This document shows positions 41,052 to 61,614 of a DNA stretch of 64,000 nucleotides, piece after piece. This DNA is from a virus (Duplodnaviria > Heunggongvirae > Uroviricota > Caudoviricetes). The notes beneath the pieces are model-generated. The model did no database searches. It was not told the DNA's origin and saw only the letters and a program-made list of their open reading frames with translations. Positions within the stretch are counted from its first letter, which is position 1, and each line of letters begins with the position of its first letter. The stretch covers positions 106,906 through 170,905 of IMG/VR virus record IMGVR_UViG_3300042558_002764; one strand, given 5' to 3'. The position numbers and the translations under genes are program-made.

Positions 41052-41276
41052 TTGGAAATGACTAGAATAGAAGAGATATTTTTTGAGGCTTTTGAATTGG
41101 GTATTCAAAATAAAATGTACGACACAGTATCTAAAATGGTTGGTAGTGGCGATTATAAATACGTGGAACTCCGCCAAATTTATGAAATTGCTTTTGAAAA
41201 AGAAAAAAAGGTTTTAATTAATAATAATTTATATGAACAAACAAACAGTTCAGAAGTTTATCAACCGAGAGCTTAA
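41052..41276 (+). CDS. Hypothetical small protein.
   Basis: ORF overlapping the next gene by 44 nt. Confidence 0.3.
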   Translation: MEMTRIEEIFFEAFELGIQNKMYDTVSKMVGSGDYKYVELRQIYEIAFEKEKKVLINNNLYEQTNSSEVYQPRA

Positions 41277-41964: not shown

Positions 41965-41965
41965 A

Positions 41966-43677: not shown

Positions 43678-43680
43678 TAA

Positions 43681-43917
43681 ATGGAACCAAAAAAACTTTT
43701 AAAAATACATAGTTTTTTATATGGTATAAATGAAATCTTAGGATATAAGGGTAATACTATTATAGAGACTGATTATATCTACGCACCATATTTACCTATG
43801 TTTATAGAAGAAGATTTTAGACCTAGGCAAGGGATTGCTTCAAGGTATGCACGAAAAATCGTGAATAACAATTTTTATGGGAGAGTTACACTTGGAGCCG
43901 ATACGCAAAATACCTAA
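43681..43917 (+). CDS. Hypothetical small protein.
   Basis: ORF. Confidence 0.3.
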   Translation: MEPKKLLKIHSFLYGINEILGYKGNTIIETDYIYAPYLPMFIEEDFRPRQGIASRYARKIVNNNFYGRVTLGADTQNT

Positions 43918-44302
43918 ATTTAATTTTGACAATTCAATAAATTTTAATTTTAATTCTTACACTGTTAATGCGGGTGCAAGAACAATACGTGCAACATGGT
44001 CACCCGAATTAGCACAAGATTTACAAGCATACCACGGGATAGACGCTGAGGCTGAATTAACGAGGTTATTATCTGAGGAATGGGCTAGAAGTATTGATAG
44101 AGAAATTATTAATACTCTTCTTGCTCAAGATTTAATAACCGTACAACCATTAGGCCGACCAATCGGTCATCTTTTTTATTTCGATTCCCAATACGAAACA
44201 TTCGAACCTAAAGTTTATGACGATGGTTCTTGGAGTCTAAAAAATATTTTTGAAAGTTCCATTGGTTTTAAAATAGAAATATCCCCACATAAGTTTATTT
44301 AA
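43877..44302 (+). CDS. Hypothetical protein.
   Basis: ORF. Confidence 0.35.
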   Translation: MGELHLEPIRKIPKFNFDNSINFNFNSYTVNAGARTIRATWSPELAQDLQAYHGIDAEAELTRLLSEEWARSIDREIINTLLAQDLITVQPLGRPIGHLFYFDSQYETFEPKVYDDGSWSLKNIFESSIGFKIEISPHKFI

Positions 44303-47055: not shown

Positions 47056-47129
47056 CGATGTGTATATCAGTTGGTTAGATAGACACTCTGATAAGGTGTA
47101 GGTCGGAGGTTCGAGCCCTCCCACATCGA
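47056..47129 (+). tRNA. tRNA-Ile (anticodon GAT).
   Basis: Hand-folded cloverleaf. Acceptor CGATGTG/CACATCG, anticodon loop CTGATAA, T-arm GGAGG-TTCGAGC-CCTCC. Confidence 0.7.
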
Positions 47130-47150
47130 CAAAAAAGAAAAAGTTCTTTG
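47127..47150 (+). repeat. Copy 1 of the conserved motif ACAAAAAAGAAAAAGTTCTTTGA.
   Basis: Near-identical to 63976-63998. The core GTTCTTTGAT also occurs at 57223-57232. Confidence 0.5.
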
Positions 47151-47169
47151 ATGTATTGGTATTAGTAAT

Positions 47170-47242
47170 GACTCAGTAGCTCAATTGGTAGAGCTCCACA
47201 CTGTTAATGTGGCCGTTACAGGTTCAAGTCCTGTCTGAGTCG
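47170..47242 (+). tRNA. tRNA-Asn (anticodon GTT).
   Basis: Acceptor GACTCAG/CTGAGTC, anticodon loop CTGTTAA, T-loop TTCAAGT. Confidence 0.7.
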
Positions 47243-47372
47243 CTGAGGTTGATTGGGGAATGATATAACGTTAACGTGTCAGTAGTCGTGGTTATATCGG
47301 AGTTGTAACTGTCCGAGTAAAGCCAATCGTAAAAGGGGATGTCCACACAACCATCTTCCCCTTTCCTAACTT

Positions 47373-47453
47373 GGGAACTGAAAGTCGTTTGGATACGGCA
47401 GCGAAACTGTAAATTTCGTCCTCGCGGGAGTGGTTCGAGTCCACCAGGTCCCA
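47373..47453 (+). tRNA. tRNA-Tyr-like element (anticodon GTA, class II) with irregular acceptor/D-arm spacing. Possibly non-canonical or a pseudo-tRNA.
   Basis: Perfect anticodon arm CGAAA-CTGTAAA-TTTCG, variable arm, T-arm GTGG-TTCGAGT-CCAC, and acceptor GGGAACT/AGGTCCC with one mismatch. There are two extra nucleotides before the D-stem. Confidence 0.35.
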
Positions 47454-47521
47454 CAAAAAAAAATAAATGTAATATAAGTGGATTTTAACTCTGTTTGTTA
47501 TATTTATAATAAAAGAATATT

Positions 47522-47971
47522 ATGAAACAGAGAGAAGTTAAAATTACTGATGAAGAAATAAAGTTGGCATATGACAAATACGACACACTACATCAGGCAT
47601 CCGCAGAATTAAAAATGACTACTGTGTCATTATGGAGAAGGGCAAAAAAAATTGGTTTAGCCTGGAAAGATAAAAACTTTAAACCTGAACAACAAAAAAT
47701 ACCTTTAAACGAGATTATAGAAGGTAAACATCCGTACTACCAAACCTTAAAATTAAAAAAAAGGTTATTGAAAGAAGGGGTTAAAGAAAATAAGTGTGAT
47801 ATTTGCGGTATAATAGATTGGAATAATATAGAGTTATCAATGCAATTAGACCATATTGATGGTGACTCACACAACCACAAATTGGATAATTTAAGGATGG
47901 TTTGCCCTAACTGCCATTCACAAACAAACACTTATTGTGGTAAAAATAAAAAAATCAAAGCGGAAATTTGA
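47522..47971 (+). CDS. HNH homing endonuclease.
   Basis: CDICGI...HIDGDSHNH...NLRMVCPNCH is a classic HNH zinc-finger nuclease motif. Confidence 0.65.
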   Translation: MKQREVKITDEEIKLAYDKYDTLHQASAELKMTTVSLWRRAKKIGLAWKDKNFKPEQQKIPLNEIIEGKHPYYQTLKLKKRLLKEGVKENKCDICGIIDWNNIELSMQLDHIDGDSHNHKLDNLRMVCPNCHSQTNTYCGKNKKIKAEI

Positions 47972-48001
47972 AAACAACATGTCTTCCTGTATATTTTATA
48001 C

Positions 48002-48073
48002 GCGTCTTTGGTGTAATTGGTAGCACGGCTGGTTCCAACCCAGTCGGTCAGGGTTCGAGGCCTTGGGGATGTG
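48002..48073 (+). tRNA. tRNA-Trp (anticodon CCA). The acceptor stem is G-U rich.
   Basis: Anticodon arm GCTGG-TTCCAAC-CCAGT, T-arm CAGGG-TTCGAGG-CCTTG. Acceptor GCGTCTT/GGGATGT pairs with four G-U wobbles. Confidence 0.5.
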
Positions 48074-48078
48074 CAAAT

Positions 48079-48151
48079 GGTGATGTAGCTCAGTTGGTAG
48101 AGCAAAGGACTGAAAATCCTTGTGTCGAAGGTTCAATTCCTTCCATCACCA
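48079..48151 (+). tRNA. tRNA-Phe (anticodon GAA).
   Basis: Acceptor GGTGATG/CATCACC, anticodon loop CTGAAAA, T-loop TTCAATT. Confidence 0.7.
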
Positions 48152-48158
48152 CCATTAT

Positions 48159-48233
48159 AGGGTAATGGACTAATTGGCAAGTCACCACGTTTGGGACGTG
48201 GGCATCGTGAGAGTTCGAGTCTCTCTTACCCTA
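48159..48233 (+). tRNA. tRNA-Pro (anticodon TGG).
   Basis: Acceptor AGGGTAA/TTACCCT, D-stem GACT/AGTC, anticodon arm CCACG-TTTGGGA-CGTGG, T-arm GAGAG-TTCGAGT-CTCTC. Variable loop of 7 nt. Confidence 0.55.
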
Positions 48234-48241
48234 CTATACAA

Positions 48242-48314
48242 TGTCCTATGGTGTAATTGGCAACACGTCGGTTTTTGGTACCGAAGAGTCGAGGTTCGAA
48301 CCCTTGTGGGACAA
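48242..48314 (+). tRNA. tRNA-Gln (anticodon TTG).
   Basis: Acceptor TGTCCTA/TGGGACA, anticodon arm TCGGT-TTTTGGT-ACCGA, T-loop TTCGAAC. Confidence 0.65.
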
Positions 48315-48320
48315 CAATAT

Positions 48321-48392
48321 GGTGTTTGAAGCATTAAGGTGATGTACTAGTTTGTGGGACTAGGAAAGACGGGTCGGTACCGTCCTTACACC
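48321..48392 (+). tRNA. Degenerate tRNA-His-like element (anticodon GTG) with a non-canonical T-loop, GTCGGTA.
   Basis: Perfect anticodon arm CTAGT-TTGTGGG-ACTAG and T-like hairpin GACGG-GTCGGTA-CCGTC. The acceptor pairs for only 5 of 7 positions. Confidence 0.25.
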
Positions 48393-48398
48393 CAAAAA

Positions 48399-48485
48399 GG
48401 AAAGGTGGGTGAGTGGCTAAAACCAACAATCTGCTAAGTTGTCGTACCTGTAAGGGTACCGAGGGTTCGAATCCCTCCCTTTCCT
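48399..48485 (+). tRNA. tRNA-Ser (anticodon GCT), class II, with CCA encoded at 48486-48488.
   Basis: Acceptor GGAAAGG/CCTTTCC, anticodon loop CTGCTAA, variable arm GTACC..GGTAC, T-arm GAGGG-TTCGAAT-CCCTC. Confidence 0.7.
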
Positions 48486-48491
48486 CCATAT

Positions 48492-48563
48492 GTGGATGTG
48501 ATGTAACGGTTAACATGAGACTCTTATACAGTCTTCTCGGTGGTTCAACTCCACCCATCCATA
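48492..48563 (+). tRNA. tRNA-Ile (anticodon TAT, reading AUA). Alternatively Met-like if position 34 is modified.
   Basis: Acceptor GTGGATG/CATCCAT, anticodon arm AGACT-CTTATAC-AGTCT, T-arm GGTGG-TTCAACT-CCACC. Confidence 0.55.
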
Positions 48564-48568
48564 CTATT

Positions 48569-48642
48569 ACACTCTTAGCTCAATGGATTAGAGCACAACG
48601 TTACGGACGTTGGGGTTGGTGGTTCGAGTCCATCAGAGTGTA
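48569..48642 (+). tRNA. tRNA-Arg (anticodon ACG).
   Basis: Acceptor ACACTCT/AGAGTGT, anticodon arm CAACG-TTACGGA-CGTTG, T-loop TTCGAGT. Confidence 0.65.
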
Positions 48643-48651
48643 CAATAATAA

Positions 48652-48722
48652 GGCACCATGCCCGAGTGGTTAGGGGTCGGTCTGCAAAACCGCTTACATT
48701 GGTTCGAACCCAATTGGTGCCT
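48652..48722 (+). tRNA. tRNA-Cys (anticodon GCA).
   Basis: Acceptor GGCACCA/TGGTGCC, anticodon loop CTGCAAA, T-arm ATTGG-TTCGAAC-CCAAT. Confidence 0.6.
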
Positions 48723-48805
48723 CTATCTTTAATTTCTTTTATATTCAATATAGGCCCAAACACCAACAAATATTGGGGTTAGTATAGCAATAACTATTTC
48801 TGTAT

Positions 48806-51013
48806 TCATCGCATAATTGTTAAATGTCCTGTTATCATTTTACGTGAGTCATCATACTCAGACCCATACATTATTCTCCAAACATAAATCCCATCAAAAC
48901 ACATTTTATTATTATAAGTACCATCCCAACCAACGGTATGATTGTATGATTCAAAAATTGTTTCACCCCATCTATTGAATACCAATAAATTATAATCATA
49001 GACATCAAACCCATCAGTAAATATTGGTAACCAAATATTGTTGAAAGCATCACCATCGGGGGTAAATGTATTAGGTATATAAATTAATTCTTGTGGACAT
49101 TCTTGTATTGCTATATTAGCTTGTTCTTCATTAGAAACACAACCATTAACCGTTTGGGAAACGCTAATTGTATAAAAACCAACATTATTCCAAACATAAG
49201 GTAAACTATTATCTTGTATTGTATCACCTTCAACAACCCAATCAAACAACCCAGATAAAGATGAATAAGCTGTATAGATTCTAAAAATACTATCACCTTC
49301 ACAAAGTTGGTTAAATTCATATGAAGGTGTTACAGATGTTATGATTGGTTGTGGGTTTACAATAACGTTGATTGTTGTATCAAATGGGCAATTACTTTGT
49401 GTATATGTATAAGTTACATCATTGTTTGTTATGATACCTTGTTGTGGGCAAAATTCATCAGTCTGAACCCCATTGACTAAGAAAGTACCATTTAAAGGTG
49501 AACCCACTAAATCTACACAACCATCATAATCACAAAAAGGACCAATAGGGTCTATTGTAGGGTTTATGTTTAAAATAAATGTAGTGAAGTAAGAGGTATC
49601 ACTATTACAACCAATAGGACTAGTAGAATAAACACTTATAGAGTCTTGATATAAACCACTAGGTTCTAATGACCAATCCGTTGTTATATTATCAGTACCT
49701 TGACCATTTATTATTTGTGGTGTTGTAGACCATATGTAGTTGTAACCAACACCCATAGAAGGTACACTATAACTTTCTGATGTTGATAAATAACATACCG
49801 TATCAGGACCACTAATAGGTGTCATTATTATTTGTGCTGGGTTAGTGAGTGTTGCATTACCTGTTACGGTACAACCTATACCGTCTGTAATTAAAAAACT
49901 ATAATTACCATAACAAAGGTTAGTGGGGTTAAAAGTTGTTTGTAGAGTATTCCAAGAAATAGTAGTGACACCATTGGTTCCGTTAGGGATTACATTAATA
50001 CTACCATCACAATAGTTATAACAAGTTGGGTCAATAAAAGTAATTGTAGGTTGTGGTAAGTTAGGTGGACCAGGTTGTACAAACACCGTATCAGGTCCTG
50101 GACCGGCAATACTATTACAAGTATTCCATCCAACATTACAAGAAGGATATACTAGTTGACAAGTATAATTAGCTCCTTGTACAGGTGGTGTAACCGTAAT
50201 GGACGCACCAACCCCAATTGGATTTGGGTTACCTACAATATACCATGTTGGTACAGGTAAAACAGTTGGTCCACTTGGAGTGTATCGGTACGCATCATTA
50301 TTTGCTGTCCATTGTGTGGAATTCCTACCTGGTACAGTTATCGCCACGGTTCCTGTGGTATTATGTAATCCTTGAACCGCGGTACCTCCCGCCCAAGCTA
50401 GACAGTTTGGTTTTGATTGAATATAATTTTCTATTACGTTTGTTGATTCATAAATCACTGTATGAAATGTCCCCAGTAAATTTGTACATGAAAACATAGG
50501 GACACCAACCCAACTAACAACTAATTTTCTACAAGGTGCTGTACCTTGAACTTGGTACCTAATTTGCCCACCTAAACCTGGGTGCCAATCTTGCCAAGGA
50601 CCCATGACACAATTTTTTGGTACTGTACCCGCACCATTAGGTATTGTTGCTGAAGTAAATGTTGTTGGTTGTGCCGGTGAAAAAGAAATCCAACCGTTAG
50701 AACCAACCCAAAATTGATTGTATGTTTGTCCAAAGAAACAAAATGTAAACCCAATATTAAAAGGACCTTGTTGTGAATCATCCGACATAAATAATTGTGT
50801 ACCAGTATTTGTTTGTGTTACATAAGGAATATTTGTAACACCGTAGTTTGTTGTTTGATTTGGATTTGAACCTGGTCCACATTGACTAAAATCGGCAGTT
50901 AATGTTGTTGACCCAACACCACAAGGTAGTATTTGGTCTGGTCCTAAATAAGGACAGTATTGTGAATAGGTCACAAAAGAAATTAGTATAAAAAGGTATT
51001 TAATTAAGTTCAT
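48806..51013 (-). CDS. Secreted Cys-rich surface protein with a T9SS type-B C-terminal sorting domain (gliding-motility-associated CTD).
   Basis: N-terminal signal peptide MNLIKYLFILISFVTYSQ. The C-terminus FTPDGDAFNN...LLVFNRWGETIF...GWDG...GIYVWRI matches the T9SS CTD consensus. Confidence 0.65.
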   Translation of the reverse strand: MNLIKYLFILISFVTYSQYCPYLGPDQILPCGVGSTTLTADFSQCGPGSNPNQTTNYGVTNIPYVTQTNTGTQLFMSDDSQQGPFNIGFTFCFFGQTYNQFWVGSNGWISFSPAQPTTFTSATIPNGAGTVPKNCVMGPWQDWHPGLGGQIRYQVQGTAPCRKLVVSWVGVPMFSCTNLLGTFHTVIYESTNVIENYIQSKPNCLAWAGGTAVQGLHNTTGTVAITVPGRNSTQWTANNDAYRYTPSGPTVLPVPTWYIVGNPNPIGVGASITVTPPVQGANYTCQLVYPSCNVGWNTCNSIAGPGPDTVFVQPGPPNLPQPTITFIDPTCYNYCDGSINVIPNGTNGVTTISWNTLQTTFNPTNLCYGNYSFLITDGIGCTVTGNATLTNPAQIIMTPISGPDTVCYLSTSESYSVPSMGVGYNYIWSTTPQIINGQGTDNITTDWSLEPSGLYQDSISVYSTSPIGCNSDTSYFTTFILNINPTIDPIGPFCDYDGCVDLVGSPLNGTFLVNGVQTDEFCPQQGIITNNDVTYTYTQSNCPFDTTINVIVNPQPIITSVTPSYEFNQLCEGDSIFRIYTAYSSLSGLFDWVVEGDTIQDNSLPYVWNNVGFYTISVSQTVNGCVSNEEQANIAIQECPQELIYIPNTFTPDGDAFNNIWLPIFTDGFDVYDYNLLVFNRWGETIFESYNHTVGWDGTYNNKMCFDGIYVWRIMYGSEYDDSRKMITGHLTIMR

Positions 51014-51156
51014 TTTTTTTTTATTTATAAATATAATATTAAGACGTATTTAAATGTAAATAGAAGGAACACTTATCCCAAAAGGTGGGATTGGAGAATA
51101 TCTAGTACTTTTGGCTTATTTTTTAAATTTACGATTAAATAGAATATTTATATTAT

Positions 51157-51930: not shown

Positions 51931-53856
51931 ATGGATAAAAATTTTTACATTAATAAATTAAATAAAACTTTAATTTCACAAACACATAACCCTCTTTTTT
52001 ATAAAGGGGATATAGTAGAAGGTTCTAAAATTCTAACTAAAGAAGTTGTAGACTCAATTAATGTTGATAGATGTTCTATATGGTTATACAACAAAAATAA
52101 AACATCTATTGTTTGCCAACAATTATATGTTAAATCTGAAAATATGTGGTATGATGGTTTAGAAATCTTTGAAAAGGATTTTGGACCGTATTTCGAAGAA
52201 TTAATAAAGAACCCAATAATAATAGCTAATGATGCTGAAAAACATCCAGCAACATCTTGTTTTACTGATGGTTATTTAAAACCACTGGGTATTAAATCTA
52301 TGTTAGATGTACCTATCATTTATTTTGGGGAAACTATTGGTGTTATATGTATTGAAAGTTTTACATTACGTGAATGGGATTCTTTTGAGGTTGATTTTAC
52401 TCAATTATTATCTTCTTTATACACTTTTGCTTATTCAATAAAAGAAACAAACAATTTAAATAAAAAAATAGAAGAAACAGAAAAATTTATTGACGTATCG
52501 ACAATTATATCTACTGCTGATAAAAGAGGTAAAATTACATATGTTAATAAAAAATTTGAGGATGTTTCTGGGTGGTCTTTGGATGAGGTAGTTGGTAAAG
52601 ACCATGTTATTGTTAATTCGGGATTACAACCTGATGGATATTGGGGTAAAATGTATGAAACGGTAATGAAAGGTGATGTATGGAATGACGTTGTTACCAA
52701 TAAAGGAAAATCAGGAGAATTATATTACGTTGATACTTTTATTAGAGCAATTTTTGATACCGATGGTAAATTGGATGGATTTGCTTCAATAAGACAAGAT
52801 GTTACAGAACTTAAAAAAAAGGAAGTTGAAATTCGCAATAGAATGAACGCGATAAATAAATCTAACGCAGTTATTGAGTTTGATTTAGAAGGAAACATCA
52901 TTTTTGCTAATAATTTGTTTTTAGAAACTATGGGATATTCTTTACAGGATGAAGTAGTTGGAAAACACCATAGAATTTTTATAGATGAGGAATACTCAAA
53001 AAGTGAAGAATACTCTCTTTTTTGGGAAAAATTAAATGAAGGGGTGTTATTTACCGGTGAAATTACTAGAATTAAAAAAGACGGTTCTTTAGTGTATCTA
53101 CAAGCAACATACAATCCAGTTATCGGTTTAGATGGTAAGGTTTATCGTGTTATGAAAATCGCGACAGATATCACCAATTCCTACGAACAAAAGAAAGAAA
53201 TTGAAAAGAAAAACACTTACCTAGAACATGCGGCTAAAATATTAAGACACGATATGCATTCAGGTATTAATACTTATATGCCAAGAGGATTAAGTTCTTT
53301 AGAAAGAAGATTAACCCCCGAAGATATTAAAACTTTAAAAATTGAGGCCCCAATTAAAATGATTAAAGAGGGTTTAAAACATTCCCAAAAAGTATATAAA
53401 GGGGTTTACGAATTTACAAATCTTGTAAAGAAAGATGTTGTTTTAAATAAAACGGAATGTAATTTAAAAGATATACTTGAGGATTATTTATCAGCGACAG
53501 CATATAGTAGTCAAGTTATTATTGATGAGTTACCAACGATAGAAGTTAATGAACCATTATTCTGTACCGCAGTCGATAATTTAATTCGTAATGGGTTAAA
53601 GTATAATGATAGTAATACAAAATTTGTTAAAATATATATGGAAGATGGTAATCTAATTATACAAGACAACGGTAGAGGGATTACACAAAAAGATTTTATT
53701 CATTTATCCCAACCATATACCAGAAAAGAAGGCCAAAAAGAATCTGGAACTGGTCTAGGGCTTAATATATGTGTAGCTATTTTAGAAGAACATAAATTTA
53801 ATATTTCGTGTGAGAAAAATGACATAGGGACAAAAATGAAAATTGAACTAAAATGA
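51931..53856 (+). CDS. Cytoplasmic sensor histidine kinase (GAF, PAS, PAS, DHp, HATPase_c).
   Basis: GAF-like N-terminus and two PAS-like segments. Divergent H-box ILRHDMHSG. N-box NLIRNGLKYN, G1 DNGRGI, G2 GTGLGLNI. Confidence 0.65.
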   Translation: MDKNFYINKLNKTLISQTHNPLFYKGDIVEGSKILTKEVVDSINVDRCSIWLYNKNKTSIVCQQLYVKSENMWYDGLEIFEKDFGPYFEELIKNPIIIANDAEKHPATSCFTDGYLKPLGIKSMLDVPIIYFGETIGVICIESFTLREWDSFEVDFTQLLSSLYTFAYSIKETNNLNKKIEETEKFIDVSTIISTADKRGKITYVNKKFEDVSGWSLDEVVGKDHVIVNSGLQPDGYWGKMYETVMKGDVWNDVVTNKGKSGELYYVDTFIRAIFDTDGKLDGFASIRQDVTELKKKEVEIRNRMNAINKSNAVIEFDLEGNIIFANNLFLETMGYSLQDEVVGKHHRIFIDEEYSKSEEYSLFWEKLNEGVLFTGEITRIKKDGSLVYLQATYNPVIGLDGKVYRVMKIATDITNSYEQKKEIEKKNTYLEHAAKILRHDMHSGINTYMPRGLSSLERRLTPEDIKTLKIEAPIKMIKEGLKHSQKVYKGVYEFTNLVKKDVVLNKTECNLKDILEDYLSATAYSSQVIIDELPTIEVNEPLFCTAVDNLIRNGLKYNDSNTKFVKIYMEDGNLIIQDNGRGITQKDFIHLSQPYTRKEGQKESGTGLGLNICVAILEEHKFNISCEKNDIGTKMKIELK

Positions 53857-54467
53857 TAAAACTAAAAAATTTATTAACCATATTTTTCATAAGTATGGTA
53901 AGTATAGTGTATTCACAACCAACCTACCCTATCCAGACACAATTAAAAGGTGATTCTGTGGTTATTCTTACAAAAAAACAATCTGATGATATTAATTCAC
54001 TAATTGAGAATCAAAAAATTAGAATACAAAAATATAAAACAGAAATAAAATTAGTTAATGATACTAACACGTTATTAAATAACGATATTAAAATAAAAGA
54101 TAGTGTTATTAACCAATTGGATAGTTTGTTAACCGTCCAAAACAATTATTACGATAGTTTAATTTCTAAAATAGATACGTTAGAGAATTGGATTTTATCG
54201 TCGTCGATAGATAATGGGTACCTATATTATTCTTGGCAAGACTCAACAGTTAAAGTTATTGATTTAAGTTTGTATATGTTAGTATCGCATAGAGGAAGTG
54301 GTAATTATAGTTTAATTACAAGAGGTGATGTTACTAATATATATTATTGGAAACAAATAAATCTACTTAAAGAAGAAAGTCCTGAGATTGGTTGGGAATT
54401 AAATATATCCCCAAAATATAAACCAAGAATAGTATTATTCCCATATAAATTAACCCCAAAATTATGA
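53853..54467 (+). CDS. Secreted or periplasmic protein with a signal peptide.
   Basis: N-terminal MIKLKNLLTIFFISMVSIVYSQ. Lies between the two kinase genes. Confidence 0.45.
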   Translation: MIKLKNLLTIFFISMVSIVYSQPTYPIQTQLKGDSVVILTKKQSDDINSLIENQKIRIQKYKTEIKLVNDTNTLLNNDIKIKDSVINQLDSLLTVQNNYYDSLISKIDTLENWILSSSIDNGYLYYSWQDSTVKVIDLSLYMLVSHRGSGNYSLITRGDVTNIYYWKQINLLKEESPEIGWELNISPKYKPRIVLFPYKLTPKL

Positions 54468-55867
54468 TAAAAAATATTTTAATAACAATAATGTTTTTGG
54501 GTTTTTTTACTTCTTTAAATGTAAATTCACAGACTGATAATAACCCCAAAAAAACAGAGATTGAACCTACATGTCCTAGTGATAGTCGTATAACTAGTTT
54601 AATTAAAAAATTAAATTACGAACCAAATAAAAAATTAACTAAATACCAATCAAGCTTATGTCAAGAAATTGGTATCTCTTTTTATAATAAAGGTATGTAT
54701 GATGAGTCAGATTGGTATTTAGATAAGGTTAGTACCTATATTGATGTTGTTGATTTAAAACCTGAAAAAGTTTTTGACACACCTAAAGAAGAACCCGTAC
54801 AAGAGTTAAGTGACTCAGAATTATCTAGTATTAAAGCCGACCAAAAATTTTTAGATGACCTACCAAAATCATACGATAATTTATCTAAAAAAGATATAAA
54901 AAAAATTGCTGATGAGATAGAGTCAAAACTCCAAAAACTATTAAAAGAAAAAAAAGAATTATTAAAAAATAAAGCTAGTCAAGAAGTTATCAGTTCTAAA
55001 ACAAGTACTATACAAATATTAGGTAAAGAAAAAAATATCATTAATCTTAGTGTTAAAAATGATGATTTAGTTACCGATAAAAAAACCTTAAAAAAATATT
55101 TATGGTGGTCCACAATTGTTCTTTCTGTTTTGGTTTTAGGTATTATTGTTTTATTACAAAGAAAAACAATTAAAGTCCAAGACATAGAAATCGAAAACCA
55201 ATTAAAAGACATTAACAAGAAAAACACTTACCTTGAATATGCGGCTAGAATAATTAGACACGACATGCATTCAGGTATTAACACCTATATACCAAGAGGG
55301 TTATCGTCATTAGAAAAAAGAATTTCAATTGAGGAAATGAATAACTTAAAAATTACACCCTCAATTAAAATGATAAAAGATGGTTTGGCACACACACAAA
55401 AAGTATATAAAAGTGTTTATGAGTTTACAAACCTTGTGAAAAATACTGTAGTTTTAGATAGAAATATGGTTGATATAAAAGAATCTTTATTAAAATACTT
55501 AACAAATACATCATATAAAAATCAGGTAGAAATTAGTGAATTAGTTACACTAAATGTAAATGAAACTCTTTTTTGGAACGCTATTGATAATTTAATTAAA
55601 AATGGGTTAAAATATAATAGTAGTGAAAATAAAGAAATTAAAATTTACATGGATAATAATGATTTAATTATTGAAGATAATGGTGTTGGATTTTCACAAA
55701 AAGAGTTCGAAAGAACAACAGGTGAATATTTAAATAAAAAGAGTAATTCCGAAGTTGGTTTAGGTTTAGGTATAACCAAAACAATTTTAGAAGAACATGG
55801 TTTTAGTATGATGTGTGAAAAAATTAACACTGGTACAAAAATAACGGTTAAATTAAATAAAAATTAA
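54464..55867 (+). CDS. Membrane sensor histidine kinase (periplasmic domain, one transmembrane helix, DHp, HATPase_c), paralog of the kinase core at 51931.
   Basis: Signal peptide, then transmembrane segment YLWWSTIVLSVLVLGIIVLL. Kinase core about 65% identical to the ORF at 51931 (IIRHDMHSGINTY, NLIKNGLKYN, DNGVGF, GLGLGI). Confidence 0.65.
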   Translation: MIKNILITIMFLGFFTSLNVNSQTDNNPKKTEIEPTCPSDSRITSLIKKLNYEPNKKLTKYQSSLCQEIGISFYNKGMYDESDWYLDKVSTYIDVVDLKPEKVFDTPKEEPVQELSDSELSSIKADQKFLDDLPKSYDNLSKKDIKKIADEIESKLQKLLKEKKELLKNKASQEVISSKTSTIQILGKEKNIINLSVKNDDLVTDKKTLKKYLWWSTIVLSVLVLGIIVLLQRKTIKVQDIEIENQLKDINKKNTYLEYAARIIRHDMHSGINTYIPRGLSSLEKRISIEEMNNLKITPSIKMIKDGLAHTQKVYKSVYEFTNLVKNTVVLDRNMVDIKESLLKYLTNTSYKNQVEISELVTLNVNETLFWNAIDNLIKNGLKYNSSENKEIKIYMDNNDLIIEDNGVGFSQKEFERTTGEYLNKKSNSEVGLGLGITKTILEEHGFSMMCEKINTGTKITVKLNKN

Positions 55868-55874
55868 AAAAAAA

Positions 55875-56312
55875 ATGATTGATTCTATATTATTAGTTGA
55901 TGACGAGGATTTATTCCATTTAGTATTTGAGGATGCGTGTTCCTTATTAGATATAAGTTTGTCTTTAAACGCGTTAAACAGTTCTGACGAAGCAGCAAAA
56001 CTATTCCAAAAATGGTTCCAAAGTGGTAATGAAGACAATAAACCAGAATGTGTTTTTGTTGACTTAAATATTATTGGTAGTTCTTTTGATGGTATTGAGT
56101 TAATTAGAAAAATAAACTTTGAATATGGTAACCATGTGGTTATTGGTATAATTTCATCGTCTAATGAACCAGATGAACAAGCTAAAGCATTACAAGCTGG
56201 AGCACAGTTTTGGATTATTAAATCAGACGATATAGAACCAAGACTAGAAGAATTTAGAAAAGATTACGAAGGTTATAAAAATAGAACCGCACCATTTAAA
56301 GTTTACAAATGA
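55875..56312 (+). CDS. Stand-alone response-regulator receiver domain (CheY-like).
   Basis: LLVDDE acidic pocket, phospho-acceptor VFVDLNI, conserved S/T and K positions. No output domain. Confidence 0.6.
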   Translation: MIDSILLVDDEDLFHLVFEDACSLLDISLSLNALNSSDEAAKLFQKWFQSGNEDNKPECVFVDLNIIGSSFDGIELIRKINFEYGNHVVIGIISSSNEPDEQAKALQAGAQFWIIKSDDIEPRLEEFRKDYEGYKNRTAPFKVYK

Positions 56313-56986
56313 TTAAAATAGAAAGTTTTACTAAAAAAAGTTTAATAGATTTATATAAAGAAAAAAATGTAGGTCTTGAGGGTAATATCACAAAATTAAT
56401 TGATTCTGAGGATGATGAAGAATTTAAAGATTATTTAAAAGATTGTGAATTAAGAGATACCGAAAAAAGGAAGAAGCGTCTTGATATGACAAAAAAAATA
56501 CAAAAACAAAATCAAGAACTATCTAATTTAAATAATGAAAACGAAAGAATTCTAGAAGAATTACAGGAAACTTTAAAAGACGTTGAGGATTCCAAGTTGA
56601 CGTATGAGGTTCAGAATAAGGAACTTAATGAGTGGAAAGAAGATAACCTTAGATTAACTGAAGAGTTAAAAAATGAAATGGCTAAATCTGAAAAGGCTAG
56701 AATAGATGCGGAAAAAGCTAAAGATATGGCCGAAAACGATTTAGATTTATTACAAAAAAGAACTCAAAATGAACTAATCTCCACCATTGTTAGAGTTGCT
56801 CTATGGATAATCATGGGTGTGGGTTTTGTAACAACTGGTGTTTATGTCTTCACATTATTAATGGGCAAAGACACTCAAGTTATTAGTGCTACTTGGTCTA
56901 ACATATTTGGTATTCTATTAACAAATGCATTTTCTATTGTAGGTACCATTATGGGTATAAAATACGCAACAGAAAAAAAAGAATAA
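56309..56986 (+). CDS. Coiled-coil protein with C-terminal transmembrane helices.
   Basis: Heptad-rich E/K/L segment, then two transmembrane helices (LWIIMGVGFVTTGVYVF and IFGILLTNAFSIVGTIMGI). Confidence 0.45.
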   Translation: MIKIESFTKKSLIDLYKEKNVGLEGNITKLIDSEDDEEFKDYLKDCELRDTEKRKKRLDMTKKIQKQNQELSNLNNENERILEELQETLKDVEDSKLTYEVQNKELNEWKEDNLRLTEELKNEMAKSEKARIDAEKAKDMAENDLDLLQKRTQNELISTIVRVALWIIMGVGFVTTGVYVFTLLMGKDTQVISATWSNIFGILLTNAFSIVGTIMGIKYATEKKE

Positions 56987-57015
56987 AAATAGTTTGACAA
57001 TTAATAAACTTTTAC

Positions 57016-57023
57016 TATATTTG
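57016..57023 (+). promoter_or_regulatory. -7 box TATATTTG.
   Basis: Upstream of the micro-ORF at 57066. Confidence 0.35.
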
Positions 57024-57065
57024 TACCATATTTAATTAATACGAACAAAAATTTTTATAAATTCA

Positions 57066-57167
57066 ATGAAAACAACAATGACATACAAACAAGGGACCGT
57101 TAAAACGGTTGATGGGAAAGTGGATTCACTTTTCTACGGACATGGGTTGTCATACTGGAGTTGTTGA
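57066..57167 (+). CDS. Micro-ORF (33 aa, MKTTMTYKQGTVKTVDGKVDSLFYGHGLSYWSC) between a promoter and a terminator, upstream of tRNA array 2.
   Basis: ATG to TGA in frame. Same architecture as the micro-ORF at 46875. Confidence 0.25.
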   Translation: MKTTMTYKQGTVKTVDGKVDSLFYGHGLSYWSC

Positions 57168-57191
57168 TTTGAATTTACTCTATATATAGAA

Positions 57192-57223
57192 TAACCCTGG
57201 GTCCAAAAGATTCAGGGTTTTTT
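57192..57223 (+). terminator. Rho-independent terminator.
   Basis: Stem AACCCTG/CAGGGTT plus a T5 run. Confidence 0.6.
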
Positions 57224-57250
57224 GTTCTTTGATATATCGGTTTAAAAAAA

Positions 57251-57340
57251 GGAAGGGTGGCAGAGTTGGTCTATTGCATCTGATTTGAAATCAGAAGTAC
57301 CTTTGAAAGGGTACCGTGGGTTCGAATCCTACCTCTTCCT
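57251..57340 (+). tRNA. tRNA-Ser (anticodon TGA), class II.
   Basis: Acceptor GGAAGGG/CTCTTCC with one G-U, anticodon arm TCTGA-TTTGAAA-TCAGA, variable arm GTACC..GGTAC, T-loop TTCGAAT. Confidence 0.65.
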
Positions 57341-57347
57341 CATAAAT

Positions 57348-57419
57348 GGTCCATTGGTGTAGTGGCCAACATACATCCCTGTCACGGATGTGCCGCGAGT
57401 TCGATTCTCGCATGGACCG
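57348..57419 (+). tRNA. tRNA-Asp (anticodon GTC).
   Basis: Acceptor GGTCCAT/ATGGACC, anticodon arm CATCC-CTGTCAC-GGATG, T-arm GCGAG-TTCGATT-CTCGC. Confidence 0.7.
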
Positions 57420-57460
57420 CAACTAACCATAAATCCTAGTAACCCCTAGGTTGGTTAAAC

Positions 57461-57533
57461 AGTTCCTTAGCTCAGCTGGGAGAGCAACTCGCTTACATCG
57501 AGAAGGTCACAGGTTCGAACCCTGTAGGAACTA
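57461..57533 (+). tRNA. tRNA-Val (anticodon TAC).
   Basis: Acceptor AGTTCCT/AGGAACT, anticodon loop CTTACAT, T-arm ACAGG-TTCGAAC-CCTGT. Confidence 0.65.
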
Positions 57534-57542
57534 CAATAAATT

Positions 57543-57617
57543 GCCTCATTAGCTCAGCTGGCTTAGAGCGTCTGATTTGTACTCAGAAGGCCGTGGGTTC
57601 GATTCCTACATGAGGCT
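57543..57617 (+). tRNA. tRNA-Thr (anticodon TGT).
   Basis: Acceptor GCCTCAT/ATGAGGC, anticodon arm TCTGA-TTTGTAC-TCAGA, T-loop TTCGATT. Confidence 0.7.
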
Positions 57618-57679
57618 CAATTAATAACAAACAAATAAAAACGTCAGATTATGGAAAGTGGCAAGTATGGCAAACACAA

Positions 57680-57751
57680 TCCCTCGTAGCAAACAAGTGT
57701 AGGCAACGGACTTTTAATCCGTGGGGCTGGGAGCGTTACCCGGCGGGGGAA
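57680..57751 (+). tRNA. Degenerate tRNA-Lys-like element (anticodon-arm TTT), a pseudo-tRNA candidate.
   Basis: Acceptor TCCCTCG/CGGGGGA, perfect anticodon-like arm ACGGA-CTTTTAA-TCCGT, and T-like hairpin CTGGG-AGCGTTA-CCCGG. No D-stem and a non-canonical T-loop. Confidence 0.2.
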
Positions 57752-57759
57752 CAAAACAC

Positions 57760-57829
57760 ACCGAGGCTTAGTGGTAAAGAACTATCTCTCATAAGGATGG
57801 TCAAGTGGGTTCAATTCCCATACTCGGTA
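57760..57829 (+). tRNA. tRNA-Met-like (anticodon CAT) with a short, irregular D-arm.
   Basis: Acceptor ACCGAGG/ACTCGGT with 6 of 7 pairs, anticodon arm TATCT-CTCATAA-GGATG, T-arm GTGGG-TTCAATT-CCCAT. Confidence 0.4.
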
Positions 57830-57837
57830 CATTATAT

Positions 57838-57908
57838 TGCGGCAAGGTGTAATTGGTTGCATGGGAGTCTCATAAACTTCAGGGGTGGTTCGAGTCCACA
57901 GCACGCTA
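57838..57908 (+). tRNA. Second CAT-anticodon tRNA-like element with a canonical D-arm and T-arm but an acceptor stem that does not pair.
   Basis: D-arm GTGT-AATTGGTT-GCAT, anticodon arm GGAGT-CTCATAA-ACTTC, T-loop TTCGAGT. 5' TGCGGCA and 3' GCACGCT are not complementary. Confidence 0.3.
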
Positions 57909-57913
57909 CTAAT

Positions 57914-57988
57914 GGGGATATAGTTTAATTGGCTAAAACATCTGATTTGCATTCAGAAGATGTCTCGGTTCGATTCCGAGTATCTCCA
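57914..57988 (+). tRNA. tRNA-Ala (anticodon TGC).
   Basis: Acceptor GGGGATA/TATCTCC, anticodon arm TCTGA-TTTGCAT-TCAGA, T-arm CTCGG-TTCGATT-CCGAG. Confidence 0.65.
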
Positions 57989-58185
57989 CAATAAAATAAC
58001 AAAAGAAAAAGAAAGAAATTAATGAAGATAGTGTTAACAGGTAAATTAGAATCACATAGAGAAATTTTTAGAGGAGAAAGAGAAAAAAATAAATTGATTA
58101 AAAGAATAAAAAAATTTATTTTTAAAAGAAAAAACGCTTAATAGAACAAAGTACAAGTTCAGGGTGGGGTGCGGTTCCCACAAAT

Positions 58186-58259
58186 GCGGGTGTAGCTCAA
58201 TTGACTAGAGTACTAGCCTTCCAAGCTGGGAGTTGCGGGTTTGAATCCCGCCACCCGCT
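58186..58259 (+). tRNA. tRNA-Gly (anticodon TCC), with a T-loop C56 to T variant and CCA encoded.
   Basis: Acceptor GCGGGTG/CACCCGC, anticodon loop CTTCCAA, T-arm GCGGG-TTTGAAT-CCCGC, then T and CCA. Confidence 0.6.
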
Positions 58260-58263
58260 CCAT

Positions 58264-58346
58264 ACGTCAGTGGCGGAATTGGTAGACGCGTTGGTTTTAG
58301 GAACCAATATCGTTAAGATGTGGGGGTTCGACTCCCCCCTGACGTA
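58264..58346 (+). tRNA. tRNA-Leu (anticodon TAG), class II.
   Basis: Acceptor ACGTCAG/CTGACGT, D-loop GAATTGGTAGA, anticodon arm TTGGT-TTTAGGA-ACCAA, long variable arm, T-arm GGGGG-TTCGACT-CCCCC. Confidence 0.7.
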
Positions 58347-58376
58347 CTTTTATTTTGCCAATTAAACAATAACCCT

Positions 58377-58389: not shown

Positions 58390-59085
58390 ATGAAAAAATT
58401 AACCTTTATTAGTGACACACACACCAAACACGAGAAACTTAACGGTTTTCTTCCTGGTGGTGATATGTTAATCTGTGCTGGTGATATCACTAGTAGAGGT
58501 TATAAAACTGAAATTGAAAATTTTCTTAAGTGGTTTGATAAAATTGATAACTATGACCACAAAATTTTCATAGCAGGTAATCACGACTTTGGTTTCCAAG
58601 ACCAACCTAATGAAACTAAAGGTTTGTTAACTGGTTATAAAACAGTTGAATATTTACAAGACGAACTTTTATTGGTTGGTGATGAGGATTATGACGATAT
58701 GGTTAAAGTTTGGGGTACTCCTTGGCAACCTGAATTTCATAATTGGGCATTTAACTTACCAAGAGGACAAGCTTTAAAAGAGAAGTGGGATATGATAACA
58801 GTTGGTACTGACATTCTTATCACTCACGGACCACCATTTGGCAAATTGGATTACGTAAAATACCCAAATCAAAATGTTGGTTGTGAAGAACTAATGAAAC
58901 GAGTTGAAGTAATCAAACCAAAAATTCACGTATTTGGACACATCCACGAAGGTTATGGTTATGTGTTTGATGGAAATACTCACTACATTAACGCAGCTGT
59001 GTTAAATGGACGATATGAGTTCCGCAATAAACCTGTGAATGTTTTATGGGATAAAAACACAAATCATTTGGAATTTGTTGATTAA
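58390..59085 (+). CDS. Calcineurin-like metallophosphoesterase.
   Basis: Motifs ISDTH, CAGDIT, AGNHDF, THGPP and GHIHEG. Confidence 0.65.
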   Translation: MKKLTFISDTHTKHEKLNGFLPGGDMLICAGDITSRGYKTEIENFLKWFDKIDNYDHKIFIAGNHDFGFQDQPNETKGLLTGYKTVEYLQDELLLVGDEDYDDMVKVWGTPWQPEFHNWAFNLPRGQALKEKWDMITVGTDILITHGPPFGKLDYVKYPNQNVGCEELMKRVEVIKPKIHVFGHIHEGYGYVFDGNTHYINAAVLNGRYEFRNKPVNVLWDKNTNHLEFVD

Positions 59086-59102
59086 TAGGTTATCTTTGTG
59101 GT

Positions 59103-59564
59103 ATGAATAAAGTAAAAATATATTTGGATGACATAAGAACTCCTAATGACAAAGATTGGTTGGTTGTTAGGAGTTTTTATGAATTTGTAGACTTAATAAA
59201 TAAAGTTGGTTTGAATAACATCGAATTAATTTCATTAGACCATGACTTGGGTGATACTGCTATGAATGAGTATTATAACAATGTTTCACCTAACTACAAA
59301 TTAGATTATGAGAACATAGAAGAAAAAACTGGTTACGACGCGGTTAAATGGTTAGTTAATTTGTTTTATTCTTTGAATGAACATAGAATCAACATGAGTA
59401 GGTCTGAGAAAAAAAGGGATAAAAATTTTTATTTCCCTAAAGTTGTGGTTCATTCAGCTAACCCAATAGGTTCAGCTAATATCATGGGTTATATCAATAA
59501 CTTTTTAATGAATGAAGGTAAATCACAAGATTGTATAAGAGTTAAAATTGAGTATTATGTATGA
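59103..59564 (+). CDS. Hypothetical protein.
   Basis: ORF. Confidence 0.45.
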   Translation: MNKVKIYLDDIRTPNDKDWLVVRSFYEFVDLINKVGLNNIELISLDHDLGDTAMNEYYNNVSPNYKLDYENIEEKTGYDAVKWLVNLFYSLNEHRINMSRSEKKRDKNFYFPKVVVHSANPIGSANIMGYINNFLMNEGKSQDCIRVKIEYYV

Positions 59565-59684
59565 TACTGAGGGACCAGAATTAACAAAACAACAAAAAAA
59601 AGATATTAAAAAAGTTGTTGACCGTTATCTTAGAATTAGATTCAAGAGAAGGGTTAGATTATTAATAGGATTAAAATTAAAATA

Positions 59685-60074
59685 ATGAAAGTTTCATTTG
59701 ATTTTGATGGTACGCTTTCTCTTAAGAGTGTCCAAGAATACGCCAAAGATTTGGTGAGTAGGGGTTTAGATGTCCACATTGTTACTAGTAGACATAGTGA
59801 TAAAGCAGCCAAAGAAGCTGGTTGGTGGTGGATATTGGACCAAAATAAAAATCTATTTAATGTTGCTCAAGAATGTGGTATTGATGAAAAAAATATTACC
59901 TTCACAAACGGAAGGGACAAGATAGAATATTTGAAAGGTAAAGACTTCAAATTTCATTTGGACGATGACGAAATTGAATTAATGTTAATTTTTGAATCTG
60001 ATGAAAAGTGTATGCCTTTGAACGTTGGTCATAGTGATTGGCGTGATAATTGTGAAACAGAAATTAAAAGTTAA
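59685..60074 (+). CDS. HAD-superfamily phosphatase-like small protein.
   Basis: Motif I FDFDGTL at the N-terminus. Confidence 0.45.
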   Translation: MKVSFDFDGTLSLKSVQEYAKDLVSRGLDVHIVTSRHSDKAAKEAGWWWILDQNKNLFNVAQECGIDEKNITFTNGRDKIEYLKGKDFKFHLDDDEIELMLIFESDEKCMPLNVGHSDWRDNCETEIKS

Positions 60075-60075
60075 T

Positions 60076-60651
60076 ATGAAAGTAATTTTTCTTGATAATG
60101 ATGGTGTAATCTGTTTGGCAGATAATTGGGGTAGTAGAATGAAAAAATTTAAAAAATATCATTCTAAAAATCCTGATGTTAAATTTGATGATAGACCAAT
60201 TGATTGTAGATTAGATAACTTTGATGTGAAAGCAATTAAAGTTTTAAATACCATCCTTGAACAAACAGGAGCTGAGATTGTGGTATCTTCTGATTGGAGA
60301 TACCAAGCTTCTCTTGAGGAACTTGGGGACTACTATCAAAGTCAAGGAATTATCAAAAGACCTATTGGGGTTACTGACATGTTTAAAGATATCTACCCAA
60401 GAGAATGGCAAAGATTGAGAAACTACGCCAAACTTGAGTATGAGAGACAAGCAGAAATCAAACATTGGTTATCGCAACATCCTGAAGTAACTCATTGGGT
60501 TGCAGTTGATGATTTAGATATGTCAGAAAAGTTTGGGTCAATCTCTGGTAATCCTAATAGTGGGTTAACTAACTTTGTCCTAACACCAAAATCAACACAG
60601 GGAATTAAACAATCAGGGATTAAAGAAAAAATCTTAAAATTTTTAATGTAA
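60076..60651 (+). CDS. HAD-superfamily hydrolase-like protein. Start moved to the ATG at 60076.
   Basis: IFLDNDGVI motif I follows directly after the Met. The track start at 60025 overlaps the upstream gene. Confidence 0.45.
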   Translation: MKVIFLDNDGVICLADNWGSRMKKFKKYHSKNPDVKFDDRPIDCRLDNFDVKAIKVLNTILEQTGAEIVVSSDWRYQASLEELGDYYQSQGIIKRPIGVTDMFKDIYPREWQRLRNYAKLEYERQAEIKHWLSQHPEVTHWVAVDDLDMSEKFGSISGNPNSGLTNFVLTPKSTQGIKQSGIKEKILKFLM

Positions 60652-60993: not shown

Positions 60994-61614
60994 ATGAGTA
61001 GAAATATTAATAGAAGTACTTCAGCTATTGTTGATGAAATTCTTAGAAAGAGTAGAATTCGTGAACAAGAAGAGGAAGAAGAAAACAAAGATACTGAAGA
61101 AAAGAAAACTGAAACAAAAGGTGAACCTGAACTTTATAAATTAAGTAGTAAGGTTATAGAAATTCTTAATAATAGAATTAAAGATGAGTATACAGCTCAT
61201 TACTATTATAGAGCGGCTACTAACTGGTGTCAGGATATGAATTATAAGAAAGCTGCTGAGTTCTTTAAAAATGAGGCTGACGATGAGTTAGAACACGCTC
61301 AAAAACTACAAGAGTATATGACAGGTTTTAATATTTTACCTGAAATAGAAAAAACAGAAACAAAACACACTTTTGGTAATTTACTTGATGTTGTTTATGG
61401 AGCTTACACTATGGAGTTGGCTTTAATGAAAGATTATAATAAAGATTCTCAGGATGTTTTTTCTGATGATATCACAACATTTGATTTTTTAACTGAATTT
61501 AGAGAAATCCAAAAAGGAGCTGTAATTGAATACAATGATTTGATTAACGCATCCAATTTGATTGATAAAGGGGATAAATTCCAAATACTTTATTTTGAAC
61601 AAACTTATTTTTAA
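60994..61614 (+). CDS. Ferritin-like diiron protein.
   Basis: EYTAHYYYRAATNWCQ...AAEFFKNEADDELEHAQKL matches ferritin family helix A/B ligand spacing. Confidence 0.55.
   Translation: MSRNINRSTSAIVDEILRKSRIREQEEEEENKDTEEKKTETKGEPELYKLSSKVIEILNNRIKDEYTAHYYYRAATNWCQDMNYKKAAEFFKNEADDELEHAQKLQEYMTGFNILPEIEKTETKHTFGNLLDVVYGAYTMELALMKDYNKDSQDVFSDDITTFDFLTEFREIQKGAVIEYNDLINASNLIDKGDKFQILYFEQTYF

Follow-up and report, generated by a model that had tools for sequence, protein, structure and literature searches.

Organization of the two-component locus

The window analysed in this work is a stretch of 64,000 nucleotides (64 kb) from a virus of the Caudoviricetes (IMG/VR record IMGVR_UViG_3300042558_002764, positions 106,906 to 170,905). 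Positions 51931-56986 of the window hold five co-directional open reading frames (ORFs) on the + strand, all confirmed at the coordinates of the window ORF listing, which encode two histidine kinases (HK1 and HK2), a predicted secreted protein (SEC), a receiver (REC) and a coiled-coil membrane protein (CCTM). Comparison with related phages identified a conserved trio of kinase (HK), REC and CCTM within this cassette. The genes and domains of the locus, in which DHp denotes the dimerization and histidine phosphotransfer domain, CA the catalytic and ATP-binding domain, TM a transmembrane helix and aa amino acids, are the following:

51931..53856, + strand: HK1, soluble sensor histidine kinase, 641 aa, with the domain order GAF-PAS-PAS-DHp-CA
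52027..52416, + strand: GAF domain of HK1, aa 33-162 (PF01590, 49.2 bits, cut-off 22.4)
52513..53175, + strand: two PAS domains of HK1, aa 195-295 and 313-415 (PAS_9, PAS_3, PAS_4 and PAS, two stretches each)
53188..53856, + strand: transmitter core of HK1, DHp with the H-box LRHDMHSGINTY, then CA (aa 544-640)
53853..54467, + strand: SEC, predicted secreted (periplasmic) coiled-coil protein, 204 aa
54464..55867, + strand: HK2, membrane histidine kinase, 467 aa, with a signal-like N-terminus, one TM, DHp and CA
55875..56312, + strand: REC, stand-alone receiver, 145 aa
56309..56986, + strand: CCTM, coiled-coil membrane protein, 225 aa, two TM helices

The genes overlap by ATGA at three junctions (HK1/SEC, SEC/HK2 and REC/CCTM), and HK2 and REC are separated by 7 nt. 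Signal peptides were inferred from hydropathy and conservation only. A first-pass annotation, made from the sequence alone, had described a five-ORF signalling architecture with the AT-rich composition of a phage. The architecture was borne out by Pfam searches, hydropathy and AlphaFold2 (AF2) models, and the G+C (GC) content of the cassette genes, 25-31%, lies within the distribution of the window ORFs (31 +/- 3%).

Histidine kinases HK1 and HK2

HK1 and HK2 carry HATPase_c domains at aa 544-640 (51.4 bits) and aa 371-465 (44 bits), respectively, both above the Pfam gathering score of 26.4. The GAF and both PAS domains of HK1 also exceed their gathering scores, and the NCBIfam sensory_box model matches with 105 bits; the GAF domain is kept in only some HK1 orthologues, and hydropathy predicted no TM segment in this kinase. 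HK2 has an extracytoplasmic region of about 190 aa and a TM helix at 213-231 (hydropathy 2.56), followed directly by DHp and CA without a HAMP domain, and the same architecture is found in the cluster representative P0173.

Neither window kinase matches the Pfam HisKA family (PF00512) at E <= 0.1. A profile of 21 family cores that share as little as 27% identity matches PDB entry 8f71 (5.7e-32) and HK853 (2e-28) over the full DHp and CA, and the alignment places the family 'irHDl' over the HK853 'isHEL', with the histidine of the H-box in register. Across the 21 cores, the His-Asp pair (H21, D22), D160-N161-G162-x-G164 and G189 are invariant, and the N-box asparagines N135 and N140, together with G187 and G191, are nearly so. 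The predicted phospho-accepting histidines are H440 in HK1 (codon 53248-53250) and H266 in HK2. As judged from these profiles, HK1 and HK2 are genuine class-I histidine kinases, for which autophosphorylation is predicted. The H-box RHDMHSGINTY had been called atypical, and it is too divergent for Pfam HisKA; since DHp and CA align to HK853 and 8f71 with the histidine in register and the His-Asp pair is invariant, it is best classified as a divergent HisKA type and not as a different class.

The HK1 and HK2 cores share 57% identity and 75% similarity over 221 aa, less than the approximately 65% identity first estimated. In a neighbour-joining tree, all HK2-type cores formed one clade, sister to all HK1-type cores, and this clade takes in the HK2 of a T4-like contig of 42% GC that has the full five-gene arrangement. 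Because the separate HK2 clade includes this 42%-GC phage, HK2 is, according to the tree, an old paralogue that was lost or transferred repeatedly, and the recent in-phage duplication proposed at first pass is not supported.

A LOV photoreceptor reading of the first PAS domain of HK1 was rejected, as the domain has GKDHVIVNSG where LOV domains have GRNCRFLQ and is without the LOV-type Cys motif; the NCBIfam matches of HK1 to YtvA and LOV-kinase models are weak and far under the cut-offs. No Hpt, CheW or MCP domains of a CheA-type pathway were found in the module with Pfam and NCBIfam, and both kinases are of the DHp type.

The receiver REC

REC matches Response_reg with 35.9 bits (Pfam cut-off 30.2), so that both regions on which the first-pass annotation had based its kinases and receiver, HATPase_c and Response_reg, score above the gathering cut-offs. 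Profile searches against PDB returned 3ilh (8e-7), VraR, Spo0A and Spo0F. The acidic pocket D9/D10, the phospho-acceptor D63 (codon 56061-56063), S94-96 and K116 are all predicted by position; these residues and the aromatic pair F112/W113 are kept throughout 43 unique close sequences, and likewise throughout 11 that diverge deeply. Beyond the receiver domain the protein has only a conserved C-terminal tail of about 25 aa and is without an output domain. REC is 82-95% identical to the window copy across 80 related viral loci (see below), and still 62-76% identical, with invariant catalytic residues, in a phage of 67% GC and two cellular copies. By these homologies REC is a genuine stand-alone CheY-like receiver, as had been read at first pass.

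The membrane protein CCTM and the secreted protein SEC

The AF2 model of CCTM (pLDDT 77.5) shows one helix at 37-185 that continues into TM1, followed by TM2; by hydropathy the two helices lie at 156-174 and 199-217. The predicted topology is N-in, C-in, with the charged C-terminal end KYATEKKE. A conserved N-terminal domain (approximately aa 1-115) carries an LEGN motif, and TM2, GILLTNAFSIVGTIMG, is invariant over 44 unique sequences, in which the whole protein is only 48-80% identical. CCTM matched no holin, Pfam, PHROG or NCBIfam family, and a Foldseek search of the model against BFVD returned one homologue from an uncultured Caudovirales phage, the rest being noise. The protein has two TM helices and lies directly upstream of an endolysin gene in 17 loci, as would suit a holin, but it is 225 aa long with a long cytoplasmic coiled coil, and in the window no recognisable lysis gene adjoins it.

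The N-terminus of CCTM is 38% identical to the first 125 aa of a 349-aa HisKA and HATPase_c protein encoded after REC on a Bacteroidota contig. As this fusion joins the N-terminal domain to a kinase core, it suggests that the domain may be the REC-responsive part of CCTM, an input module with a swappable output, and we propose CCTM as the likely target of REC.

SEC has a hydrophobic N-terminus (1-19) followed by a conserved SQP-YPIQT motif, in which Q22, Y25, P26, Q28 and T29 are invariant, and matched no family in Pfam, PHROG or NCBIfam. Its AF2 model, of low confidence (pLDDT 65.8, pTM 0.31), begins with a signal helix and a hairpin, continues with a helix of some 80 residues and ends in a beta-rich C-terminal domain that is poorly predicted. 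The SEC family consists of 33 clusters only.

Conservation of the HK-REC-CCTM trio

A first scan of IMG/VR with the HK1 core yielded 80 loci, and a second viral scan, which started from REC of a divergent phage, added 79 new loci with GC contents of 0.29-0.55. HK, REC and CCTM follow one another in this order in all 80 loci of the first scan, and all three genes are present in 75 of the 79 loci of the second, nearly always in the same order. In the first set the kinase core is 77-88% identical to that of the window, CCTM always lies directly after REC, and the two genes overlap by 4 or 1 nt in 79/80 loci. The trio was also found in phage contigs of 42%, 49% and 67% GC that had been binned into metagenome-assembled genomes (MAGs); when REC from the 67%-GC phage served as the query of a viral scan, no loci were returned.

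HK2 occurred in the first scan on the window's own contigs and in seven other loci, five of them with SEC and two without, and SEC was found only alongside HK2. SEC is an optional partner of HK2. The conserved unit is the trio HK-REC-CCTM, to which a minority of lineages add SEC and HK2 as an optional insert; the presence and absence of genes in related phages therefore replaces the five-gene module of the first-pass annotation with a three-gene core. No conserved gene for a DNA-binding or enzymatic output was found near the trio among the scanned loci.

The sensor part of the kinase varies among the orthologues, which comprise forms with two TM and GAF-PAS-PAS, two TM and PAS-PAS, two TM and one PAS, a TM anchor and core only, soluble PAS-PAS, and three PAS domains. 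In the first set 34 of 46 unique sequences are membrane-anchored kinases, and in the second 48 of 54; 13 of the membrane-anchored family kinases have the anchor and core only. The soluble HK1 of the window is a minority form within the family.

Phage origin and distribution

An identical HK1 with the same neighbours is encoded by a 149.8-kb JGI contig (Ga0453144_0000020) and by several shorter contigs, and relatives occur on IMG/VR contigs of up to 322 kb. An origin from the host chromosome or from misassembly is rejected, since the exact gene set recurs on the 149.8-kb contig and the relatives lie on phage contigs, with phage-type neighbours; the cassette is phage-encoded, as had been assumed. 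The window itself contains 19 tRNA genes and has an almost uniform coding strand, and most of its large ORFs that were tested had no family match. It encodes an SbcC-like nuclease, a match to PHROG 850 ('RNA-binding protein') and a PHROG family common to T4-like cyanophages and pelagiphage HTVC008M. In divergent carriers the cassette adjoins a T4-type topoisomerase II large subunit, a virion structural protein or phage-only PHROGs.

The search with the kinase core returned 1,836 clusters at 90% identity. For CCTM the figure at E <= 1e-3 was 5,963 clusters, which may be too high because of coiled-coil matches. When the kinase core was compared with 1.84 billion representatives, 92 clusters matched at E <= 1e-30, and the number rose to 335 at E <= 1e-10. 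Among 50,697 phage records, megablast of the 5-kb region found no match, and tblastn of HK1, REC and CCTM found PAS-domain matches only, or nothing. The great rarity in phages that was first supposed is consistent with the lack of matches in cultured phages, but does not extend to uncultured ones, given the 1,836 core clusters. PADLOC defence models gave only two chance-level matches (E 0.002-0.004). The searchable full-text literature contained no description of an HK-REC-CCTM cassette, in agreement with the earlier suggestion of an undescribed system.

Among 185,579 species genomes, eight loci were at least 53% identical, all of them in MAGs; three had phage-type neighbours when tested, and two were chromosome-like (Bacteroidota). 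One of the latter, L088 (5784-9090; Bacteroidetes MAG contig CANIVF010000058), encodes a three-PAS kinase, a REC 66% identical to that of the window and then a soluble kinase with a CCTM-like N-terminal 125 aa, in a chromosome-like context of genes for type IX secretion system (T9SS) cargo, CreD, HD and HAD proteins. This arrangement may be an undescribed kinase-receiver-kinase cascade in Bacteroidota. In the other, L091 (5709-9109; 967-kb Bacteroidetes MAG contig VGMW01000001), a tandem-PAS kinase is broken into two ORFs, perhaps through a frameshift, and is followed by a REC of 61% identity. L091 is without CCTM; the gene after REC is dissimilar to it and, from reading the sequence alone, has the look of a TetR-type regulator.

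Among named cellular kinases the closest is that of Phaeodactylibacter luteus, at only 33% identity. Upstream of the cassette, at 48806-51013 (- strand), the window encodes a 735-aa protein in which a PKD-like domain is combined with a T9SS type-B sorting domain (CHU_C, TIGR04131) at the C-terminus. The GC content of the gene is 35%, against 29% for its neighbours, and several related loci have a homologue, 29-47% identical, close to the kinase. The protein is probably a surface protein of host origin. A T9SS-sorted protein in the phage, together with the origin of the nearest named kinase in Phaeodactylibacter, points to a Bacteroidota host.

Lysis genes near the trio

In the related phages the trio is often accompanied by lysis genes. 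In 17 loci an endolysin of PG_binding_1 and Glyco_hydro_19 type is encoded 10-23 bp downstream of CCTM, and in 25 an endolysin of the same family is the divergent upstream neighbour. Phage_holin_4_1 lies directly upstream of HK in six loci and directly downstream of CCTM in two, and in other loci a Phage_holin_10 gene follows the endolysin. Altogether, 52 of the 80 loci have an endolysin or holin gene at most two genes from the trio. In the second set, a homologue of lysis-like families lies at most four genes away in 35/78 loci, 17 of which involve a Pfam-verified family.

The c22 neighbour family was considered as an endolysin but not confirmed (weak PHROG match at 1e-8 and no PDB match), and it was counted separately. 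Homologues of c22 and of c17, a small TM protein, are at 30590-31180 and 29309-29635 of the window; as they lie about 20 kb from the window cassette and are adjacent to it in relatives, this region is rearranged here. In locus L217, a 260-aa protein encoded three genes downstream has a GLGQIMP motif and resembles an SLT-type transglycosylase, by sequence reading alone. Related phages carry near the cassette a gene that resembles DnaK (Hsp70) by sequence, and positions 35800-36732 of the window encode a full-length DnaJ (J domain, CXXCXGXG, C-terminal domains).

Proposed function of the cassette

We tentatively propose that the cassette is a phage-borne phosphorelay in which the receiver docks on a membrane effector, with lysis timing as the probable output, a reading that we regard as quite possible rather than probable. 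Upon input, the kinase would autophosphorylate on H440 (HK1) or H266 (HK2); the input of HK1 would be cytoplasmic, via its GAF and PAS domains, and that of HK2 periplasmic, together with SEC. The phosphoryl group would then pass to D63 of REC, and phosphorylated REC would dock on the cytoplasmic N-terminal domain of CCTM and alter the packing or oligomerization of its membrane hairpin. If so, the output would be a membrane event and not transcription, and lysis timing is the most likely such event because the trio is often inside or beside a lysis cassette in related phages; CCTM would control it by acting on a holin or as a holin. More doubtful, though still worth considering, is the broader claim that a widespread and numerous group of large uncultured phages decides on lysis by its own two-component relay, in which phosphorylated REC switches CCTM as a holin or antiholin. 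In that case membrane-anchored or GAF/PAS kinases would sense the condition of the infected cell; some lineages would have a second input, through a kinase facing the periplasm and its secreted co-sensor.

Several observations weigh against this proposal. The window cassette lies between two tRNA arrays, and the endolysin and holin families of its relatives have no homologue in the 64-kb window. Metallophos and DnaK neighbours also recur, so the linkage to lysis genes may in part be inherited gene order, and the synteny counts are not independent because many loci are close relatives, some of them near-duplicates. The binding of REC to CCTM is deduced from gene order and one domain fusion. Recognisable holins stand beside the trio in several loci, which means that CCTM need not be a holin. 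This bears on a sharper form of the proposal, in which CCTM itself is a long, class-II-like holin and REC, phosphorylated or unphosphorylated, its cytoplasmic antiholin. The N-in, C-in topology with two TM and a charged C-terminal end, the classical site immediately 5' of the endolysin in 17 loci and the many loci without another recognisable holin beside the endolysin are what such a role would predict; as a holin, CCTM would nevertheless be atypical in its 225 aa with about 150 aa of cytoplasmic coiled coil, it matches no holin family, and bona fide holin-family genes co-occur in several loci, so that we rate this form as rather improbable. A membrane function other than lysis timing under signal control through the same relay, such as superinfection exclusion, inner-membrane traffic of DNA or protein, or envelope remodelling, would equally employ a membrane hairpin as output and mostly membrane-anchored kinases. 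The periplasmic input through HK2 and SEC suits envelope sensing, and the window cassette is not beside a recognisable lysis gene. We nonetheless consider such a function unlikely, for it leaves unexplained the endolysin and holin neighbours that recur in several arrangements.

The relay might instead be directed at the host, with the phage HK and REC phosphorylating host regulators, or acting as a phosphate sink or mimic, and CCTM serving only as a tether. The two chromosome-like Bacteroidota contigs do carry close homologues (REC 61-66% and HK core 61% identical), one cellular downstream kinase has the N-terminal domain of CCTM and could in principle be addressed by the phage REC, and the nearby T9SS-sorted phage protein points to a Bacteroidota host. 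The cellular copies, however, occur in only 2 of the 185,579 species genomes and the trio in phages from 29% to 67% GC, so that most hosts would be without the presumed target; in addition, essentially all phage copies retain CCTM in translational coupling with REC, a point in favour of a self-contained pathway. Takeover of the host by cross-talk accordingly receives little credence from us. That the genes are a passenger, or a decaying auxiliary cluster acquired from the host and without a role in infection, is hardly credible: their variable region between tRNA arrays, beside a probably host-derived cargo gene of higher GC, would suit it, but the frames are intact and the catalytic residues invariant, REC retains 62-95% identity among very divergent phages, and about 155 loci share one gene order.

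Comparison with known systems

The cassette shares with classical two-component systems (of the HK853, EnvZ and bacteriophytochrome type) the His-Asp H-box of the DHp, the N, G1 and G2 boxes of the CA, the sensor modules, the DD/D/S/K residues of the receiver and the arrangement in an operon. It differs from them in being phage-encoded, in an H-box beyond the reach of Pfam HisKA, in a receiver without an output domain, and in a fixed third gene for a coiled-coil membrane protein instead of a transcription factor. The parts are ordinary two-component parts; the phage-specific arrangement, in which a receiver-only regulator has a fixed, translationally coupled coiled-coil membrane partner, is not, and the full-text searches found no account of it.

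Single-domain response regulators that act by protein-protein contact are known from the CheY-FliM, DivK-DivL/CckA and Spo0F pathways. Like these, REC is a stand-alone receiver, with an output that would have to be protein binding, and in L088 the putative partner is a second kinase, as for DivK. There is no homology to FliM, DivL or Spo0B, however, and the proposed phage partner is a two-helix membrane hairpin of no known family.

Lysis inhibition in phage T4 depends on two antiholins that act on the holin T, RI from the periplasm and RIII from the cytoplasm. The likeness to the relay proposed here would be one of concept, namely a signal-dependent delay of lysis, periplasmic and cytoplasmic inputs, and binding of small regulators to soluble domains of a membrane lysis protein. 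No sequence or family relationship was detected between the two, and the present system would be based on phosphorylation, with a lysis role deduced from the gene neighbourhood.

Among cultured phages, CDS-30 of Alteromonas phage V22 has been annotated as a kinase/CheY-like auxiliary gene (PMC7289586). Such auxiliary kinases and regulators (V22 CDS-30; PHROG 857, 10912 and 731) likewise have HATPase_c or receiver domains, but they are weakly related to the proteins of the window (PHROG E 1e-7 to 4e-17) and none is described as a three-gene cassette.

Other features of the window

Two tRNA arrays, at 47056-48723 (11 genes) and 57251-58347 (8 genes), bracket the cassette, the T9SS gene and a 249-aa ORF, which places the cassette in a tRNA-flanked accessory island. 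The gap between CCTM and the downstream array (56990-57235) contains, on reading by eye, a promoter-like TTGACA...TATATTTG, including a Bacteroidetes-type TAnnTTTG motif, and a small ORF from 57067, followed by a GC-rich hairpin and a T-run at about 57193-57230. With 25 copies, against 17.8 expected, the T4 late-promoter motif TATAAATA is not significantly enriched, and the single copy at 51026 is uninformative as a clue to timing.

A cREC_REC gene (59103-59564, 74.6 bits) lies 2.8 kb downstream of the cassette, in a cluster of RNA-repair type at 58390-60651 (Metallophos, cREC_REC and HAD_SAK_2); the PHROG 850 protein (E 4.5e-149) is encoded about 18 kb upstream, at 39025-40467. The cREC (cyclic-phosphate-processing receiver) of jumbo phages has been described as never associated with histidine kinases (PMC7824862), in a survey that deals with this unrelated domain alone. 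The cREC cluster of the window matches the contexts reported there and is separate from the kinase relay. In the precomputed source annotation, the segments 41233-42760 and 43679-44302 hold two adjacent Mom-like genes (PF25680) and two small ORFs (78 and 136 aa) with Pfam Gp23 major-capsid matches, of odd size for this protein, and a ferritin-family gene (PF00210) is at 60994-61614.

Implications

The timing of lysis in phages is usually ascribed to holin clocks and a few dedicated antiholins, and their sensing of the environment to borrowed quorum or arbitrium peptides. If the proposal is right, a relay of kinase, receiver and membrane effector would be a new viral route of information processing during infection, conserved in very many uncultured phage genomes from 29% to 67% GC, with sensor domains freely swapped. 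It would also offer a defined three-protein system in which a single-domain receiver controls a membrane protein. The cassette can further serve to mark a large clade of big aquatic phages without a cultured member. Should the link to lysis be wrong, the trio is still a conserved phage signalling module.

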